This document shows positions 11,259-39,739 of a stretch of DNA of 39,967 nucleotides, piece after piece. The translations under genes were made by a program, and so were the position numbers. The stretch comes from Patescibacteria group bacterium. GTDB taxonomy: Bacteria > Patescibacteriota > Patescibacteriia > UBA9570 > JAHJKD01. Where the stretch lies: positions 1 through 39,967 of the forward strand of contig JBDRCS010000057.1 of NCBI GenBank assembly GCA_043821615.1, in the 5' to 3' direction. Every line of letters begins with the position of its first letter. Position 1 is the stretch's first letter. The notes below the pieces were generated by a model. It ran no database searches, was not told the origin of the DNA, and was given only the letters and a program-made list of their open reading frames with translations.

Positions 11259-11822
11259 TTATTTATTAAAATTAAATATTTCGTCCACTTGCTCCAGAAA
11301 TTCTTCGCTGCCGCCGAAATTATAGAGCCATTCATCTTTTTCCAGGAGAATCATATATACAGGCGAGCCGTCTTTGTTGGAAGCACCAGTGATGAAGGTG
11401 GCGGGATAACCATCGATGGTAACATCTTCTTCTGAAGCAATATTCTGGCTTTCACGGACAATGCCTTCCATGTCTCCGGGCATTACCGTGAGATAATTAT
11501 CTTCCCCAAAATGGTATAAATAGGTATCGCCAATGAAATCCGGACCCACTTCATTATAGCCAACTAAAGTGAAGTCGAGAGATGGGGATAATAATTCTAG
11601 TTTTCCCTGTTTTTCAGCTTCTTCTTCTGTGAGATCGTCAATATCTTTATATTCTTCTTCTACTGCTTCATTAACATTTTTATTTACTTCATTGGGGTTA
11701 TATTCCACATCTTCGGACCAAAAAACAAAGTAAAATACCAGAATTATGCCAACAATAACCAGAAAGCCTATGAATAGCCATCCGGAATTGTCTGTTTGTA
11801 AGAATCTTTTTGTTTTGGACAT
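11259..11822 (-). CDS. Hypothetical membrane-anchored protein
   Basis: One N-terminal TM (WLFIGFLVIVGIILVFYFVFW) and an acidic linker. Start moved to ATG 11822 (MSKTKRF) because the track start at 11843 lies inside the rpsO terminator hairpin. Confidence 0.6.
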   Translation of the reverse strand: MSKTKRFLQTDNSGWLFIGFLVIVGIILVFYFVFWSEDVEYNPNEVNKNVNEAVEEEYKDIDDLTEEEAEKQGKLELLSPSLDFTLVGYNEVGPDFIGDTYLYHFGEDNYLTVMPGDMEGIVRESQNIASEEDVTIDGYPATFITGASNKDGSPVYMILLEKDEWLYNFGGSEEFLEQVDEIFNFNK

Positions 11823-11831
11823 GATATATAC

Positions 11832-11859
11832 AAAAAACCCCAAGAAAGGGGCTTTTTTT
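11832..11859 (-). terminator. Rho-independent terminator directly after rpsO
   Basis: The minus strand reads TAA AAAAAAG CCCC TTTCTT GGGG TTTTTT; the stem can extend through A:U and G:U pairs. Confidence 0.55.
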
Positions 11860-12133
11860 ATATGTTGGTATCTTTTAATTTCAAGGCAGCAATTATCTTT
11901 TCGTAAGATTTTAGGTCGTCTTTTTTCAAATATCGCATTAATCTGCGTCTTTGACCGACTTTTTTCAGCAAACCGCGACGAGAGGAGAAATCTTTCTTAT
12001 GTTCTCGTAAATGGCCAGTGAGATCTTCAATTTCAGCTGATAATAGCGCAATTTGCACTTGTGGGGAGCCAGTATCACCTTTGTGAGTGGCAAACTTTTG
12101 AATAACGTTGTCTTTTTGGGTCTTGGAAATCAT
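11858..12133 (-). CDS. rpsO: 30S ribosomal protein S15
   Basis: MISKTQKDNVIQKFATHKGDTGSPQVQIALLSAEIEDLTGHLREHKKDFSSRRGLLKKVGQRRRLMRYL is canonical S15. Start taken at ATG 12133 (91 aa). Confidence 0.9.
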   Translation of the reverse strand: MISKTQKDNVIQKFATHKGDTGSPQVQIALLSAEIEDLTGHLREHKKDFSSRRGLLKKVGQRRRLMRYLKKDDLKSYEKIIAALKLKDTNI

Positions 12134-12190
12134 AGTTTTCTTATGCGCGACACCCAAGAAAGCGCTAATGGCCTCAAACCGAGGTGTCGT
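12134..12190 (-). promoter_or_regulatory. Structured rpsO 5' leader (possible S15 autoregulatory element)
   Basis: 7-bp stem CGACACC (12148-12154) / GGTGTCG (12183-12189). It competes with a local CCTC/GAGG hairpin (12172-12184), so the two pairings exclude each other. Confidence 0.4.
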
Positions 12191-12300
12191 AGATTAATTT
12201 TTTAAATATTTTATGTAGTGAGGAGTATACCAATATATATAAAAATAGTCAATTTTAGAGGGCTCTATACTTAACTTGGTGGTGGAAAAGTTAGTTGTAG

Positions 12301-12632
12301 CCCCAATAGGGAGAGCCTTATACCTCGCATTTCAAAGGAATAAAAAGAACCCGGCGGAGAAGAGGTCTCGAGGCAGAACGTGGGAGTGAACTGCCTTGAT
12401 TCCAATTCTCCACCGGGTCAGCCAAGGTGCAGGTAAAACACCCTAGCTCTTCACGCCGGAGAGAGAGTCTAGCGCCTGAAAAAAGGCGCGGGCAAATGTC
12501 GGAACCTATGACTATCAGTCCCTGTCTTTGGCTCTCTACACAATCCGGCGTGGATTGTGCGGTGCCGGGAGAGGTGTCCCCCTCCCGGCGAAAAAAGAAG
12601 CGCTGGCTCGGGCTGAGCCTTGCTCCATTGGG
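12301..12632 (-). ncRNA. Unclassified GC-rich structured RNA candidate (about 330 nt)
   Basis: 38/60 GC in a hand-counted line versus 16-24/60 in host lines. Only overlapping nonsense ORFs on both strands. Perfect helices include GCCGGGAG/CTCCCGGC, CACAATCC/GGATTGTG and GCGCC/GGCGC. A 13-bp helix (12349-12361 with 12406-12418) has a G:U on the minus strand but a C:A mismatch on the plus strand. The ends pair as a closing helix (12623-12632 with 12301-12313). Confidence 0.45.
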
Positions 12633-12638
12633 AAACAA

Positions 12639-12665
12639 AGTATATTAATATGGTTTTTTTGTCAA
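12639..12665 (-). promoter_or_regulatory. Possible promoter for the GC-rich RNA (TTGACA-15-TATACT)
   Basis: The minus strand reads TTGACA AAAAAACCATATTAA TATACT. The 15-nt spacer is short, hence the low confidence. Confidence 0.35.
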
Positions 12666-12672
12666 TCTCTTT

Positions 12673-12715
12673 CCTCTCCCCCTGCCCCCCTCTCCCCTCC
12701 GGGAGAGGGGGAAAC
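12673..12715 (+). repeat. GC-rich hairpin repeat, copy 1 (REP-like)
   Basis: CCTCTCCCCCTGCCCCCCTCTCCCCTCCGGGAGAGGGGGAAAC. 38/43 identical to 37005-37047. Stem CCCCCTCTCCC/GGGAGAGGGGG. Confidence 0.8.
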
Positions 12716-12716
12716 C

Positions 12717-12745
12717 AAAAAAAGACCAAACAATAATGTTTGGTC
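12717..12745 (-). terminator. Rho-independent terminator after the 12770..13123 gene
   Basis: The minus strand reads GACCAAAC ATTATT GTTTGGTC TTTTTTT. Confidence 0.75.
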
Positions 12746-12769
12746 AATTTTATCTAAAATGTAAGTATA

Positions 12770-13123
12770 TTATTTAACAAAAGCCTGTAAAGCGCGTTGT
12801 TGGGCGGCGTTAATAGCGCGATTTCCAATTATTTTCCCGGCATTTTTACCGGTTTGTTTGATAAAATGCTGACCGGCTTTGGAGAAGCCTTTTTGGGCTA
12901 CAGAGGATTTTATGGCTTTTAGGATGTGGCCTGAAGCCAGAAATTCGCCCGCAATATAAAGGCCGCGGTCAACCAGCTTTAATTTTTGGCCAGCTAGGTT
13001 GTAGCCGACAATGGCATAGCCAATGCCGACAAAAGGCACTAATTCAGCACAAAAACTCGTTACTTTGGGAACTGTATCTAATTCGAGGAAAATTAAAATT
13101 TTTCTAAAATTTGATTGTTTCAT
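12770..13123 (-). CDS. Hypothetical protein (117 aa)
   Basis: Host-like composition, followed by a clean terminator. No motif recognised. Confidence 0.5.
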   Translation of the reverse strand: MKQSNFRKILIFLELDTVPKVTSFCAELVPFVGIGYAIVGYNLAGQKLKLVDRGLYIAGEFLASGHILKAIKSSVAQKGFSKAGQHFIKQTGKNAGKIIGNRAINAAQQRALQAFVK

Positions 13124-13182: not shown

Positions 13183-13188
13183 GTGTGT

Positions 13189-14109
13189 ATGGTCAATTTA
13201 AAAGATTTAAAAACTGAGTTTTTGGAATATTTGGAGATTGAGAGGAATCGGTCTCAGGCGACGATTAAGAACTATGATTTTTATCTGGAGCGTTTTTTGG
13301 AATGGTCGAAACTGACTGACCCGGCAAAAATTGATTTACCGGTTGTGAAAAATTACCGGCTTTACCTAAATAGAATGACTGATGAGAAAACTGGCGAGCC
13401 TCTAAAGAAGAATACGCAGAACTATCATGTGATCGCCCTAAGGAGCTTTTTAAAATACTTGGCCAAGCAAGACATTGAAACTTTGTCGGCCGATAAAATT
13501 GAATTGTCTAAACAACCTGACAGACAAGTGGAATTTTTGGAAGGAGCTGAGCTGGAGAAAATTTTAGAGGCTCCCCTGCAAATTAAAGGTCCGGAGATTA
13601 TTAAAAAAAGGGATAAGGCGATAATGGAATTATTATTTTCTACAGGATTGCGTGTATCAGAAATTGCCAAACTTCAAAAAGATGATATTAATTTAAAAAA
13701 AGAAGAATTTTCCGTAAGGGGAAAAGGCTCAAAAATTAGAGTGGTGTTTTTATCAGAGCAGGCGCGCTATTGGCTGGGTGAATATTTGAAGATGAAACAA
13801 ATGGATGTGTCGCCTTATATTTTTACAGCGCATGACAGAGCCCAAAAGGGCAGAGATGAAAAACCAATCACGCCACGCACCGTTGAACGCATCGTGGAAA
13901 AGTATGCCAAGGTAGCCGGGATCACAAAAAAAGTGACGCCCCATACTTTGCGCCACAGTTTTGCGACCGACCTTTTAGCATCCGGGGCGGACATCAGATC
14001 TGTCCAGGCCATGCTGGGGCATTCATCCATTACCACAACCCAAATATACACTCACATTACAGATAAACATCTGAAAGAGATTTACAAAAAATATCATAAT
14101 AAGAAATAA
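13189..14109 (+). CDS. Tyrosine recombinase, XerC/XerD family
   Basis: N-terminal SAM-like core-binding domain. C-terminal RVSEI ... HTLRHSFATDLLASGADIRSVQAMLGHSSITTTQIYTH (R..HxxR..Y catalytic set). Confidence 0.85.
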   Translation: MVNLKDLKTEFLEYLEIERNRSQATIKNYDFYLERFLEWSKLTDPAKIDLPVVKNYRLYLNRMTDEKTGEPLKKNTQNYHVIALRSFLKYLAKQDIETLSADKIELSKQPDRQVEFLEGAELEKILEAPLQIKGPEIIKKRDKAIMELLFSTGLRVSEIAKLQKDDINLKKEEFSVRGKGSKIRVVFLSEQARYWLGEYLKMKQMDVSPYIFTAHDRAQKGRDEKPITPRTVERIVEKYAKVAGITKKVTPHTLRHSFATDLLASGADIRSVQAMLGHSSITTTQIYTHITDKHLKEIYKKYHNKK

Positions 14110-23943: not shown

Positions 23944-25815
23944 ATGGAAAAGTTTTTTAAGTTTGTGGAAAAAAATGAAACTTGGGTTGCTATTTTAATT
24001 TGTGTAGTATTTTTCTTTGTCTCTCTATTTTCAGTGGCAGGTTTTAACTGGTTAGATCAAAAAACTTCCGGTGATGCGCCAACCAGCGACGAAGTCTCTC
24101 ATATTACAGACGGGTATTATTATTTTCAGACCGGGCGCTACTTTATTAACCCGGAGCACCCACCCCTAACTAAAGACTTGTCAGCCTTACCTCTTTTAAT
24201 ATTGAATCCTGAATTTCCTGAGATAATGGGTGAATATGGCAACCCGGAAACCAAAGGAGAGCCAAAGTTCCCTTATGAAGAAGATGTGTATTTGGAGCTG
24301 GATGATGAAATGAACAACGGGCAATGGGAGCTGGGCCGGATATTCATGTATCACCCCAATAATGATCCGGATGTAATTACTTTTTGGTCACGCTTCTCTG
24401 TAATTTTCTTCAACTCTTTATTATTGTTCTTGTTATTTTTATCGCTCAAAAAGACCTGGAATGCCAAAGCTGGTTTGCTGAGTCTAATTTTAATTGCTGT
24501 TTCCCCTTTTATGATGGCGCATGCCTCTTTGGTGACTTTGGATTTTATGCCGAGCATGTTTCAGATGTTGGCATTTTGCTGGCTGGCAATATTTTTGAAA
24601 AATTGGTTGGGCAAGAAAAAGTTTATAATGGCATTTATATTAACAGTGTTGTGCTTTAGTGCGGCTATGCTGTCTAAGTTTTCGTTTGCTATGTTTTTGC
24701 CGGTGGCTATGGGAGTGGGCTTGATTGTGGTGTTGTTTAGAAAAAATAAATGGAAAGATATTTTAACATATATTGGCTTCATGGCTTTGCTGGGTGCATT
24801 GGTTATATTAATAATTGGACTTTTCTATTCTCCCCATGTGATTAATATGAGTGCTGAAGACATGGTTACTCAAGTGAATAATACTTATCCATCTGAAGGC
24901 TTGCCTGAATTTGGAAAAGATATAATGAATGGATTGGCGGAAACTAACTTTATTTTCTTTAAAGGATTAGTGGAATACGGTGTGGGAGTGGTAATGGTGC
25001 TGACCAGGATTGCCGATGCCTGGCAGACAATTTATTTTATGGGTGGAGTGTACGGCTCTGAAGGAGCGGGCCTACTCTACTTCCCGGTTTTGTTCTTCAC
25101 TAAACTCACTATTCCCTTTTTATTATTATTTTTATTAAGTATAGGTCTGGCTATTTTTGACTTATTCAAAAAGAAAAATAAACTTAAAAAGAAAATCTCA
25201 GAATATTTGAAAAATCCTTTGGCCTTTTTTCTGCTTTCTGCGGTGGGAGTGTACGGATTAATTACAGCTTTCTCTAGTTTTCAGATCGGTCTAAGGCATA
25301 TCATGCCTATGATTTTAGCCATAGCTTTATTAATGGCAAAACAGCTTTATAATTATTGGGATAAAAAATATATTCAGTATGGTTTTATTACAGCCTTAAT
25401 ATTTATGATCGGGTCTTGTGTCTGGGCGTTTCCTCATTATCTAGAATATTACAATCTTTTAGGAGGCGGCACAAAGAACGGCTATAAAATTGCGACAGAT
25501 TCTAATTATGATTGGGCTGGTCAGGATTTAAGGAGATTGGGCAACTGGATGGAGGATAATAATGTAGACACAATTTATACAGATATTTTCACTAATGTGC
25601 CGATTCAATATTATACAGGTGACGATCAAAAAGAATATCGCATTGGCTGGGATTGGACGCCACCAAAAGGAGCTTATATAGCAGTGTCTGCTAATCGGTT
25701 GCAAAATAATATTTATAGTGATGATATTCCTGAGGATCAAAAATATTCACTATGGGATGACTATTTAGTGGATAGAGTGGGAGAAACTATATTTATATAT
25801 CAGATTCCGGAATAA
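23944..25815 (+). CDS. GT-C fold (PMT_2/ArnT-like, GT39/83-type) membrane glycosyltransferase
   Basis: 623 aa, more than 10 TM segments. First-loop motif YFINPEHPPLTKDL. Soluble C-terminal domain. Confidence 0.7.
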   Translation: MEKFFKFVEKNETWVAILICVVFFFVSLFSVAGFNWLDQKTSGDAPTSDEVSHITDGYYYFQTGRYFINPEHPPLTKDLSALPLLILNPEFPEIMGEYGNPETKGEPKFPYEEDVYLELDDEMNNGQWELGRIFMYHPNNDPDVITFWSRFSVIFFNSLLLFLLFLSLKKTWNAKAGLLSLILIAVSPFMMAHASLVTLDFMPSMFQMLAFCWLAIFLKNWLGKKKFIMAFILTVLCFSAAMLSKFSFAMFLPVAMGVGLIVVLFRKNKWKDILTYIGFMALLGALVILIIGLFYSPHVINMSAEDMVTQVNNTYPSEGLPEFGKDIMNGLAETNFIFFKGLVEYGVGVVMVLTRIADAWQTIYFMGGVYGSEGAGLLYFPVLFFTKLTIPFLLLFLLSIGLAIFDLFKKKNKLKKKISEYLKNPLAFFLLSAVGVYGLITAFSSFQIGLRHIMPMILAIALLMAKQLYNYWDKKYIQYGFITALIFMIGSCVWAFPHYLEYYNLLGGGTKNGYKIATDSNYDWAGQDLRRLGNWMEDNNVDTIYTDIFTNVPIQYYTGDDQKEYRIGWDWTPPKGAYIAVSANRLQNNIYSDDIPEDQKYSLWDDYLVDRVGETIFIYQIPE

Positions 25816-37002: not shown

Positions 37003-37004
37003 AT

Positions 37005-37047
37005 CCTCACCCCCTGTCCCCCTCTCCACTTCTGGAGAGGGGGAAAC
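37005..37047 (+). repeat. GC-rich hairpin repeat, copy 2 (REP-like)
   Basis: CCTCACCCCCTGTCCCCCTCTCCACTTCTGGAGAGGGGGAAAC. Stem CCCCCTCTCCA/TGGAGAGGGGG; relative to copy 1, the closing C:G pair has changed to A:T on both arms. Confidence 0.8.
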
Positions 37048-38758: not shown

Positions 38759-39739
38759 TCAAACAAGTTCCCAATTGGGATCGGCTTGAATTTTAAATAA
38801 ATTGGTGGCTTTTTTCTTGTAGGCGCCGGCGGCCGCAACCATGGCCGCGTTATCGGTGGTGAATTCCAGGTCCGGAATCAGGGTATTTTCAAAAGTTTCC
38901 CTAAATCTAGTACGCAGCCTTTGATTGGCAGAGACGCCGCCGGCCAGCAAAAAAGTCCGGGCATTATAATATTTTGACGCTTCTTTAGTTTTTTTAATTA
39001 AAACATCCACTATTGCCTCTTCCAGAGAGGCGGCAATGTCGGGCTGGCTATAATCTTTGAAGTTTGGCTCTTCATAGAGAAAAGCGGTTTTGAGGCCGGA
39101 AAAGGAAAAATCGTAGTTGCCGGAATCCAGCATAGGACGCGGAAAATCAATGACCGGCTTGCCCCGATTGGCGAGCTTGGAAATTTCCGGTCCGCCGGGA
39201 TAAGGCAGGCCCATTACTTTGGCGCATTTATCGAAACACTCGCCGGCCGCATCATCCTGGGTGGTGCCGATCAGCTGATACTCTCCCTGGCGGGAAAGCA
39301 AAACAATTTCAGTGTGACCGCCAGAGACAATCAGGCACAAGGCCGGGTATAGCACTTTTTTATTGGAGAGAAAGTTGGCCCCAATATGAGCCTCCATATG
39401 GTTGACCTTAAATATTGGCTTTTTCCATAATAGAGAAAGAGCCTTGGCTGTTTCCGTGCCCACTATTAACGAGGTAATAAGACCGGGGCCGGAGGCAATG
39501 GCGATCCGGTCCAGGTCTTCCCATTTTGTCTGCGCATCCCAAAGGGAGCCATTGATTACAGGAATAATATTTTTCACATGTTCACGCGCAGCCACTTCCG
39601 GGACTACGCCACCGGTTTCACGGTGAATGGATATTTGCGAGGAAACAATGTTTGATAAAACTGAAAAACGACCCTTTTCATGTTCCACAACTGAGGCGGA
39701 AGTTTCGTCACAGCTTGTTTCTATGCCAAGTATTTTCAT
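38759..39739 (-). CDS. tsaD: tRNA N6-adenosine threonylcarbamoyltransferase TsaD
   Basis: MKILGIETSCDETSASVV, HMEAHI, GGVSAN. Start taken at ATG 39739; the track's 62-aa extension is AT-rich junk. Confidence 0.9.
   Translation of the reverse strand: MKILGIETSCDETSASVVEHEKGRFSVLSNIVSSQISIHRETGGVVPEVAAREHVKNIIPVINGSLWDAQTKWEDLDRIAIASGPGLITSLIVGTETAKALSLLWKKPIFKVNHMEAHIGANFLSNKKVLYPALCLIVSGGHTEIVLLSRQGEYQLIGTTQDDAAGECFDKCAKVMGLPYPGGPEISKLANRGKPVIDFPRPMLDSGNYDFSFSGLKTAFLYEEPNFKDYSQPDIAASLEEAIVDVLIKKTKEASKYYNARTFLLAGGVSANQRLRTRFRETFENTLIPDLEFTTDNAAMVAAAGAYKKKATNLFKIQADPNWELV

Follow-up and report, generated by a model that had tools for sequence, protein, structure and literature searches.

A GC-rich, hairpin-dense patch upstream of rpsO in a Patescibacteria bacterium: a candidate gene for a new structured RNA

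The intergenic gap upstream of rpsO and pnp, in a 39,967-nt stretch of DNA that we refer to as a whole as the window, holds a GC-rich patch that on balance is probably the gene for an independently transcribed, stable, structured noncoding RNA of about 340 nt, encoded on the minus strand and belonging to a new, clade-specific family. The patch folds unusually well, has no credible ORF and falls into no known RNA family; its promoter and its site are conserved, and its counterparts in relatives show RNA-type conservation. Transcription, the RNA ends, the targets and the function of the RNA are what we infer.

The gap measures 636 nt (12134-12769), and the patch lies on the upstream side of rpsO, in the same minus-strand orientation as rpsO-pnp. 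A preliminary description, made from the sequence, had reported a GC-rich patch in an AT-rich gap before these genes, and we agree: GC content is 56.0% at 12301-12632, compared with 35.4% in the rest of the gap and 39.8% in the window, and the count of 38 G or C among the 60 positions of 12541-12600 was correct. The host is a groundwater Patescibacteria (CPR) bacterium, and the locus is present in assembly GCA_018814425.1. The surroundings of the patch are as follows.

11858..12133, minus strand: rpsO (S15), 91 aa, ATG at 12133 (Pfam PF00312, E 2e-32)
12224..12252, minus strand: rpsO promoter, TTGACT, 17 nt, TATACT, with TG (promoter scan)
12295..12633, minus strand: predicted structured RNA body, about 340 nt (from the fold and helix map; putative ends)
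12639..12665, minus strand: promoter-like site, TTGACA (12665-12660), 15-nt spacer, TATACT (12644-12639) (sequence reading)
12672..12715, minus strand: one copy of a dispersed element made of a hairpin and a G-tract, abutting the -35 box on its upstream side
12724..12745, minus strand: intrinsic terminator of the upstream 117-aa gene, 9-bp stem then U7 (terminator scan)

On the 3' side of rpsO there is a 194-aa ORF and then pnp, for which pnp domains were found. No defence or phage families were found for the neighbouring 117-aa and 194-aa proteins. An integron reading of the neighbouring recombinase was rejected, since it scores as XerC/XerD/XerA-like, far under integron-integrase cut-offs.

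The folding energy of the patch is exceptional for this DNA. Its minus strand has a minimum free energy of -161.7 kcal/mol, compared with -115.3 +/- 5.3 in dinucleotide shuffles (z -8.76, 0/100), and the plus strand reaches a z of -4.02 in the same kind of shuffles. Among all 356-nt windows of the 40-kb window, the minus strand of the patch has the most negative GC-corrected folding energy. The predicted fold has the following parts, from 5' to 3' after the two closing helices.

12625-12633 with 12301-12309, minus strand: closing helix, 9 bp (pair probability 0.86)
12530-12536 with 12311-12317, minus strand: second closing helix, 7 bp (pair probability 0.82)
12564..12589, minus strand: 11-bp hairpin GCCGGGAGGGG-GACA-CCUCUCCCGGC (pair probability 1.00)
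12538..12560, minus strand: 9-bp hairpin GCACAAUCC-ACGCC-GGAUUGUGU (pair probability 0.83)
12450..12529, minus strand: weakly paired central region, in a multibranch loop (low pair probabilities except for a 6-bp hairpin)
12420..12448, minus strand: 11-bp hairpin AGCUAGGGUGU-UUUACCU-GCACCUUGGCU, three G:U pairs (pair probability 0.99)
12348..12419, minus strand: long hairpin (pair probabilities 0.97 and 1.00)
12272..12293, minus strand: 3' tail, a small hairpin UAACUU/AAGUUA with loop UUCCACCACC (pair probability 0.87)

The preliminary description had proposed an end-to-end closing helix, a 13-bp helix (12349-12361 with 12406-12418) and several perfect hairpins. All of the helices it named exist: the first is the 9-bp closing helix listed above, the second can be extended to 14 bp, and predicted hairpins of 11, 9, 11, 6 and 5 bp have pair probabilities of 0.83-1.00. 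In its 14-bp form (12406-12419 with 12348-12361, two G:U pairs) the second helix is the base of the long hairpin, which continues into a 6-bp upper stem, AGGCAG/CUGCCU, and the apical loop UUCACUCCCACGUU (12377-12390). The outer stem UUUUCGCCGG...CCGGC of the hairpin at 12564..12589 is common to the window and L168, the locus of a relative. Within the central region we found a 6-bp hairpin, GCGCCU/AGGCGC (12472-12489, pair probability 0.94), and a tract predicted to be single-stranded, CUCUCUCUCCGGCG. Because the sequence CUCUCUCCGGCG is almost a second copy of the 3' arm of the 11-bp hairpin, alternative pairing may be possible. The terminator scan found no U-run terminator after the 3' tail hairpin, and read-through into rpsO would therefore be possible.

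Transcription would start from the TTGACA-15-TATACT promoter (12665-12639), with the first nucleotide of the RNA predicted, from the position of the -10 box, about 6-7 nt past it. This pair of hexamers had been pointed out directly upstream on the minus strand, and we confirmed it; its 15-nt spacer is non-canonical, and our promoter scan did not list the site because its range was 16-18 nt. In L161, the locus of the nearest species, a 35-nt block that spans the two hexamers with their 15-nt spacer shows 83% identity, and the promoter of unit 1 in the relative L002 also has 15-nt spacing. We assign the RNA to the minus strand on the basis of this conserved promoter, the terminators and the G:U excess in relatives (see below), and motifs shared on that strand. 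An earlier argument for the same strand was that the 13-bp helix has a G:U on the minus strand and a C:A on the plus strand; the pairs are as described but are not decisive, and interior G:U to A:C in the window RNA stands at 5:1 on the minus versus 9:2 on the plus strand. Metatranscriptomes X14, X17 and X18 from the same study have zero coverage of the organism, rpsO included. DNA runs X1-X3 contain the organism in full, and no RNA runs were found for L001.

The element that abuts the -35 box has the form CCCCCUCUCC-loop-GGAGAGGGGG-N-CAGGGGG[A/U]GAGG. A second copy in the window (37004-37047, 89% identical) ends 4 nt before the valS ATG, and others occur in L002, in L017 and in 16 IMG/VR contigs; the 44-nt element at 12672-12715 is thus multi-copy, in the manner of dispersed hairpin repeats.

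GC-rich, ORF-less, hairpin-dense units with their own promoters are present in six species (the window, L161, L162, L168, L001 and L002), all of one small clade, recognisable by S15 of at least 78% identity and by an ORF of 194-201 aa separating rpsO from pnp, and the site is constant, between xerC (with or without the 117-aa gene) and rpsO. More distant CPR genomes have no such unit at the site. The bodies of the units turn over rapidly. Between the window and L161 the flanks are 82% and 91% identical, the latter over 12255-11686, and the body of about 500 nt between them is unalignable (global z -0.5); homology restarts exactly at the rpsO promoter, which is the downstream boundary of the variable segment. 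Global and local alignments of the body with those of the five relatives were no better than shuffles, blastn and nhmmer searches of the RNA against 168 loci matched the flanks only, and a covariance model (CM) of hairpin 4 from L001/L168 gave no match in the window and a weak one in L162 (E 0.37). Links in sequence between the window RNA and the RNAs of relatives are weak, the excess of k-mers in common having p ~0.01-0.04. Since the window RNA has no alignable homologue, its particular fold is without covariation support; the copies found, in all runs and contigs of the species, were 100% identical only.

Among the relatives, the bodies of L001 and L168 can be aligned, and all 50 predicted pairs are intact, with both partners changed in 7 of them and one partner in 10. 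These bodies are about 70% identical while their coding flanks reach only 71-72%, which argues that the bodies are under constraint. Interior G:U to A:C over all six units is 63:7 on the sense strand versus 49:21 on the antisense strand. Folding is likewise stronger in sense than in antisense for L161 (z -7.05 versus -3.4) and L001 (z -11.1 versus -7.7), and the relatives' units have U-run terminators on the sense (rpsO) strand. All SNPs between L162 and L163 lie outside the RNA region. Hairpin modules are common to L001, L162 and L168 in mosaic fashion, and L162 has AT-rich tandem repeats at the same site. We propose that the family would be limited to this clade and to the fixed site between xerC (with or without the 117-aa gene) and rpsO-pnp, and that it may evolve by wholesale replacement and reshuffling of hairpin modules, leaving bodies that cannot be aligned between close species. 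What would persist is the promoter, together with an architecture that is rich in GC and dense in hairpins and with a small number of single-stranded motifs, namely the UUCAC[U/C]CCC loop and CCACCA.

We next consider the other explanations. In the first, the RNA is not free-standing but serves the rpsO-pnp operon in cis, as a long 5' leader or 5' stabiliser. Transcription from the upstream promoter would continue through the folded domain into rpsO, and the domain might shield the mRNA from 5' decay or undergo processing, by RNase III for instance. The shared orientation and the lack of any intrinsic terminator from the RNA body to rpsO in the window are consistent with this, as are unit 2 of L168 and unit 2 of L002, which adjoin rpsO and also have no U-run terminators. 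However, rpsO has its own near-consensus promoter and its true leader, 12223-12134, is separately conserved (90-91% identical to L161), in L161 and L001 a strong terminator closes the unit directly ahead of the rpsO promoter, and the predicted 5'-3' closing helices suggest a discrete folded molecule. We therefore find a leader rather unlikely. An S15 autoregulatory leader was rejected because the patch is upstream of the rpsO promoter (12252-12224) and hence outside the rpsO 5' UTR.

Another explanation is that the patch, without any role as RNA, is an accumulation of selfish or neutral DNA, GC-rich and palindromic or hairpin-forming, at a recombination-prone intergenic site beside xerC, comparable to REP, BIME and MITE elements or to yeast mitochondrial GC clusters. 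It resembles such repeats in its clustered, perfect, GC-rich intergenic stems, and this explanation would also account for the extreme turnover between close species with conserved flanks, the mosaic hairpin modules and the tandem repeats of L162; furthermore, a truly dispersed hairpin element, with further copies in the window, among relatives and on viral contigs, adjoins the patch at its promoter. The body itself, in contrast, is single-copy: there is no second copy in the 40-kb window and no second contig at >=85% identity in the four metagenomes that hold the organism. A distant blastn search with the RNA against a phage database gave no match, and pattern scans of viral contigs with RNA-body motifs gave none or chance-level ones. 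The body also differs from REP/BIME/MITE-like repeats in having its own conserved promoter, directed into it, while terminators close the units of relatives; the excess of G:U over A:C is sense-strand-specific, covarying stems carry conserved loops, and the L001 and L168 bodies are constrained. Taken with these data, hairpin DNA without function seems unlikely to us.

If the patch does encode a free-standing RNA, the most likely mode of action, though itself doubtful, is that of a trans-acting regulatory RNA whose C-rich loops pair with G-rich ribosome-binding regions. The window, L168, L162 and L001 each have one apical loop of the type RUUC...CCC (UUCAC[U/C]CCC); this C-rich loop is confined to the sense strand, and the stem that carries it differs in all four species. 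In the window RNA, C makes up 29% of the unpaired bases and G 11%; in the units of the five relatives the shares are 27-42% for C and 4-11% for G, and C is above G in all six units. CCACCA is found 7 times in the units of the six species versus 1.3 expected, although this and the other motif enrichments concern motifs picked after data inspection. Such C-rich, G-poor loops resemble the anti-Shine-Dalgarno tail of 16S rRNA, and might pair, in the manner of RNAIII, RsaE or RepG, with targets such as the GGGGGUGAGG element before valS. A 9-bp pairing of the window loop with GGGGGUGAG would be possible at the ribosome-binding site of valS (-15.4 kcal/mol), but it comes no higher than about 11th in the window, and the sites that outrank it are inside a coding region. 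We found no exact complement of >=13 nt to the RNA in the window, and nothing above chance.

We compare the patch RNA with Staphylococcus aureus RNAIII (RF00503), RsaE/RoxS and Helicobacter RepG in mode of working, with no claim of membership. Like these, it is predicted to be a stable, promoter-driven, multi-hairpin RNA of a few hundred nt, with C-rich, G-poor apical loops that might pair with G-rich ribosome-binding regions. RNAIII, too, changes rapidly in sequence from species to species but keeps its C-rich loops. Turnover of the patch body is far more extreme, since it has been replaced between flanks that are 82-91% identical, and the patch RNA further differs from RNAIII in host phylum (Patescibacteria), in having no sequence or CM similarity to it and in encoding no hld-like peptide.

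A further reading, which we think distinctly unlikely, is that of a hypervariable locus under diversifying selection, with loops that mimic the anti-Shine-Dalgarno sequence and target the GGAGAGGGGG-N-CAGGGGGUGAGG element for translation control or as a decoy, possibly in conflict with phages. Bodies would be swapped or rebuilt hairpin by hairpin between species, and the target would be the hairpin-plus-SD element that is common to these bacteria and many viral contigs.

Could the patch instead code for protein, as a small GC-rich cassette whose product is short or unusual? ORFs of 106, 92, 78 and 73 aa do overlap it, but they lie over one another in several frames and on both strands. None of them matches Pfam or has SD or ATG context or hydrophobic segments. 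A search of 5.8 billion proteins returned no homologue of the 106-aa ORF, whose TTG start precedes the point where transcription is predicted to begin; none of the ORFs is conserved in the relatives' syntenic units, and public gene callers leave the gap empty. A protein-coding cassette is therefore very improbable, in keeping with the preliminary description, which had seen only overlapping ORFs here. A type I toxin mRNA was also rejected, as the patch has no small hydrophobic ORF. Public gene calls on the units of relatives (a 178-aa product in L172 and a 32-aa product in L168) are spurious and call for correction.

Finally, we asked whether known RNA families match the patch, by searching Rfam on both strands, across the whole window at the gathering score and within 12100-12800 (701 nt) at E<=10. 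Only chance-level miRNA and sRNA matches were returned, together with a sub-threshold ylbH-leader (29 bits; gathering score 50) that falls on the dispersed element, off the RNA body; the loci of relatives gave nothing relevant. The patch is thus claimed by no known family, as had been proposed. The accompanying suggestion of RNase P RNA or tmRNA did not hold up. For RNase P RNA (RF00010/RF00011) there was no CM match at the gathering score or at E<=10. For tmRNA (RF00023 and permuted forms) there was none at E<=10, and ARAGORN found three tRNAs and zero tmRNA in the window. SRP RNA (RF00169/RF01854), 6S RNA (RF00013), and RF00503, RF01820 or related families likewise gave no match at E<=10. 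The P4 pseudoknot of RNase P RNA is made of the universally conserved CR-I and CR-V, in 5'-to-3' order. CR-I (GAGGAAAGUCCGGGC) is absent from the patch, and a CR-I-like match at 38948 was rejected because it is inside a coding region and has no Rfam match. CR-V (ACAGAACCCGGCUUA) has one 12/15 match, at 12344-12358 on the plus strand, which is at chance level (19/100 shuffles give >=2 matches) and in a region that forms a local 14-bp hairpin, not a P4 pseudoknot. The conservation expected of RNase P RNA failed as well, the body being unalignable with L161.

The patch RNA does resemble bacterial RNase P RNA in its size of about 340 nt, its P1-like 5'-3' closing helix, its multibranch layout and its GC enrichment, features of which size, closing helix and GC would suit tmRNA too, and 10/35 CPR RNase P RNAs came to light only at scores under the noise cut-off in one study (Lui et al., 2021; PMC8172020). 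Compared with RNase P RNA, including these diverged CPR forms, it lacks a model match, the P4 signature and conservation between close species. A highly diverged RNase P RNA, tmRNA, SRP RNA or 6S RNA missed by standard models is hardly credible, and what decides the matter is that the sequence is different in all six species and replaced between 82-91% identical flanks, as an essential housekeeping RNA would not be.

The patch RNA also invites comparison with OLE, ROOL, GOLLD and raiA (all in Rfam) as a GC-rich, ornate, ORF-less RNA that stands out in an AT-rich genome through its composition and fold. These are large bacterial noncoding RNAs whose function is unknown or has only recently been glimpsed. 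Their sequence and structure are conserved across many genera and they are detected by CMs, whereas the patch RNA matches none of them; it is much smaller than OLE, ROOL and GOLLD, and hypervariable within one small clade.

Altogether, these data suggest that the tiny genomes of CPR/Patescibacteria keep dedicated GC-rich RNA genes that no catalogue explains. What is unusual in this one is that promoter and site are conserved while the RNA body is replaced between close species and a few loop motifs are kept. To our knowledge, no trans-acting regulatory RNA has been characterised in Patescibacteria. If transcript and targets are not confirmed, the patch would be another orphan structured RNA candidate; if they are, it would be an RNAIII-like regulatory RNA, linked to the hairpin-plus-SD element of viral contigs.

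In minus-strand gene order, the GC-rich patch at 12301-12632 lies in a 636-nt gap between a 117-aa ORF and rpsO. The features of this locus, together with a second site near valS, are as follows:

13123-12770, minus strand: 117-aa ORF of unassigned function, first in the gene order
12745-12724, minus strand: terminator of the 117-aa ORF, with U7
12715-12672, minus strand: hairpin-plus-G-tract element, copy 1, directly upstream of the -35 box of the RNA
12133-11858, minus strand: rpsO (Pfam S15, E 2e-32)
11259-11843, minus strand: 194-aa ORF between rpsO and pnp
11187-9019, minus strand: pnp
13183-14109, plus strand: XerC/XerD-like recombinase gene, divergent
37047-37004, minus strand: hairpin-plus-G-tract element, copy 2, 4 nt ahead of the start codon of valS

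Across the clade, the ORF between rpsO and pnp is 194-201 aa long, with a hydrophobic N-terminal segment and no match to any family. GC content is 56% in 12301-12632, 35% in the remaining gap and 40% in the window; the preliminary description had correctly counted 38/60 GC at 12541-12600.

Against -115.3 +/- 5.3 kcal/mol in dinucleotide-shuffled sequences, the minus strand of the patch folded at -161.7 kcal/mol, a z of -8.76; z for the plus strand was -4.02. When folding energy was regressed on GC for every 356-nt window of the 40 kb, the minus strand of the patch was the strongest outlier, with the tRNA cluster second. The main helices were robust in the ensemble. The proposed end-to-end pairing was found as a 9-bp closing helix (probability 0.86), with a second one of 7 bp (0.82), and hairpins of 11, 9, 11, 14+6, 6 and 5 bp had pair probabilities of 0.83-1.00; the central ~70 nt paired weakly. 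In the long hairpin, CAAGGCAG pairs with CUGCCU to form a stem beneath the apical loop UUCACUCCCAC. A helix first described as 13 bp is in fact 14 bp, and its C:A on the plus strand is indeed a G:U on the minus strand. That position had been taken to argue for a minus-strand RNA, but G:U counts of the window RNA alone are uninformative in this respect (interior G:U to A:C of 5:1 on the minus strand and 9:2 on the plus strand).

For comparison, 80 genome loci were gathered via PNPase, and 80 metagenome loci plus the nearest S15 clusters with contigs via S15. Across the whole protein collection, just four relatives of the 117-aa protein were present, and the clade is therefore small. Same-species contigs (L169-L171) were 100% identical over 1.4 kb, and four metagenomes carried the same sequence without variants or paralogous copies at >=85% identity. 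The nearest other species (L161, S15 93% identical) shares 82% identity over xerC and the 117-aa gene, 91% from the rpsO -35 box onward, and a 35-nt RNA-promoter block (83% identical, 15-nt spacer kept). The ~500 nt between these flanks could not be aligned (no blastn match, global z -0.5, local scores within the shuffle range), and neither could the body with L162, L168, L001 or L002, the other related species. In six of six species, exactly this site carries one or two units that are GC-rich, dense in hairpins and devoid of ORFs, each with its own TTGACA-type promoter. More distant CPR genomes (L174, L175, L177) had no unit there and only 190-230 nt upstream of rpsO. Judged by alignment, the body of the window RNA has turned over to an extreme degree between species, and its promoter and site are conserved.

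The TTGACA/TATACT pair reported upstream on the minus strand is present with a 15-nt spacer; our promoter scan did not list it because it accepts spacers of 16-18 nt. In three unit promoters (window 12639-12665, L161 1356-1382, L002 1803-1829), this unusual spacing separates a mismatch-free TTGACA from a TATAAT-like -10, and those of L001, L162 and L168 have 17-nt spacers. If the RNA instead acted in cis, as a leader or stabiliser for rpsO-pnp, the lack of a terminator after it in the window would fit; however, a conserved promoter serves rpsO separately and terminators are present in the relatives, and we consider this role improbable. Window 12134-12255 (minus strand), which comprises the promoter of rpsO (TTGACT-17-TATACT with TG) and a 90-nt leader, is 90-91% identical to L161. 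Since a long-range stem, GACACC...GGGUGUC, encloses a CCUCGG...GAGG hairpin there, this leader is a candidate for S15 autoregulation, distinct from the structured RNA further upstream.

Several independent signals argue that the relatives' units are RNA genes. Folding was stronger in the rpsO sense than in antisense, relative to shuffles, in L161 (z -7.05 vs -3.38) and L001 (-11.1 vs -7.66), and a sense-strand hairpin followed by a U-run closes the units of L161 and L001 and unit 1 of both L168 and L002. L001 and L168 have three hairpins in common at ~70% identity, with protein-coding flanks at just 71-72%; none of the 50 predicted pairs was broken, with both bases altered in 7 and a single base (giving G:U) in 10. 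Interior G:U versus A:C 1x1 mismatches in helices of six units numbered 63:7 in sense and 49:21 in antisense, an asymmetry to be expected if selection acts on RNA rather than on palindromic DNA. The syntenic units of the relatives thus show RNA-type constraint. An accumulation of hairpin DNA, whether neutral or selfish, would agree with the body turnover and the adjoining repeat, but the promoter and loops are conserved, the body is single-copy and the G:U excess is strand-specific; we consider it slightly less probable still than a leader. In L162, an AT-rich stretch (1915-2085) that lies after the structured unit and before the promoter of rpsO contains a tandem duplication of ~60 nt (aatcaaggctaatcctcctaatcacggtcaatcccggtccc), together with a long AT-rich palindrome that yields spurious miRNA-family matches (mir-651, 42 bits).

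The description of the patch as ORF-less held: its overlapping ORFs had no Pfam match, the longest (106 aa) had no homologue among 5.8 billion proteins, and public gene callers called no gene in the 636-nt gap. The window RNA has an unusually stable fold and no credible ORF, and a small protein gene is very unlikely. Public calls antisense to units at two other loci, L172 586-1122 (178 aa) and L168 2774-2872 (32 aa), have no Pfam match and are probably spurious ORFs.

A diverged housekeeping RNA is the least likely reading. At gathering score, Rfam 15 found only three tRNAs in the whole window, and RNase P, tmRNA, SRP, 6S and large-ncRNA models gave no match at E<=10 on either strand of 12100-12800. 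The best match at that threshold, a sub-threshold ylbH-leader (29 bits vs 50), covers the terminator and repeat element upstream of the promoter, outside the RNA body. ARAGORN found no tmRNA, and RNase P CR-I and CR-V consensus matches were not above chance; a single 12/15 CR-V match is one arm of the 14-bp hairpin on the plus strand. The earlier suggestion of RNase P RNA or tmRNA is thus not borne out. Lui et al. 2021 (PMC8172020) show that relaxing the Infernal thresholds recovers even diverged RNase P RNAs of CPR bacteria, whereas the patch gave no such match even at E<=10.

Does the window RNA belong with the relatives' units? There is no similarity overall, and k-mers are shared only modestly more often than expected (p about 0.01-0.04). 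On the minus strand it has a homologous promoter at the same site, with C exceeding G and, as in all other units, C-rich, G-poor unpaired bases. It shares with L168 the 12-mer GGAGCAAGGCUC and a stem, UUUUCGCCGG...CCGGC, and the apical loop of its long hairpin has related forms in L168 (CCAAGGCAGUU...AUUCACCCCCCCC...ACUGCCUUGG), L001 (AAUUCCCCCCCCUCCCC) and L162 (AUUCUUCCCCCCAC). Each of these species and the window has exactly one loop of this C-rich type, on the sense strand only, closed by varying stems (GGCAG/CUGCC, GAGAG/CUCUC, GAGAC/GUCUC, ACUGU/ACAGU). CCACCA, a motif picked after viewing the data, is enriched (7 observed vs 1.3 expected, 0/300 shuffles); in the window, L168 and L001 it sits close to the 3' end. 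The window was not reached by a covariance model built on the L001/L168 hairpin, which fits an inner-stem deletion but also leaves the homology putative. These specific minus-strand features link the window RNA and the relatives' units in a putative single family.

Transcription is predicted to start at about 12633 and may yield a discrete stable molecule, as the closing helices suggest, which would act through its conserved single-stranded C-rich loops. The loop UUCAC(U/C)CCC resembles the 16S rRNA 3' tail (AUCACCUCC) and is complementary to GGGGGUGAG, the core of the hairpin-plus-G-tract element. Predicted pairing with the valS site (-15.4 kcal/mol) ranks only about 11th in the window, with better sites inside an ORF; an anti-SD mimic, by analogy with RNAIII, RsaE or RepG, is therefore only a tentative possibility. 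The best complements, three GGGAGUG-containing sites within 550 nt (24706-25258, plus strand; -19 to -20 kcal/mol), fall inside a 623-aa ORF (23944-25815) and are probably a repeated peptide motif, not a target.

The dispersed 44-nt element has the form CCCCCUCUCC-loop-GGAGAGGGGG-N-CAGGGGG(U/A)GAGG and also occurs in L002 (1275-1347 and 1731-1803), L017 and L178-L193. Exact copies of its 23-nt core are present in 16 IMG/VR viral contigs, which differ widely in GC content and in some cases contain 2-3 copies. Its sole Rfam signal is the sub-threshold ylbH-leader (29 bits). Since an ATG often follows at 4-8 nt (valS in the window, a 125-aa gene in L002), it looks like a hairpin-plus-strong-SD module.

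Altogether, the patch probably encodes a structured RNA, unclassified and clade-restricted, and we put the case for a real, new, fast-evolving RNA gene at slightly better than even. Its distinguishing trait would be that close species have different bodies in place of one another while the promoter in front stays conserved.
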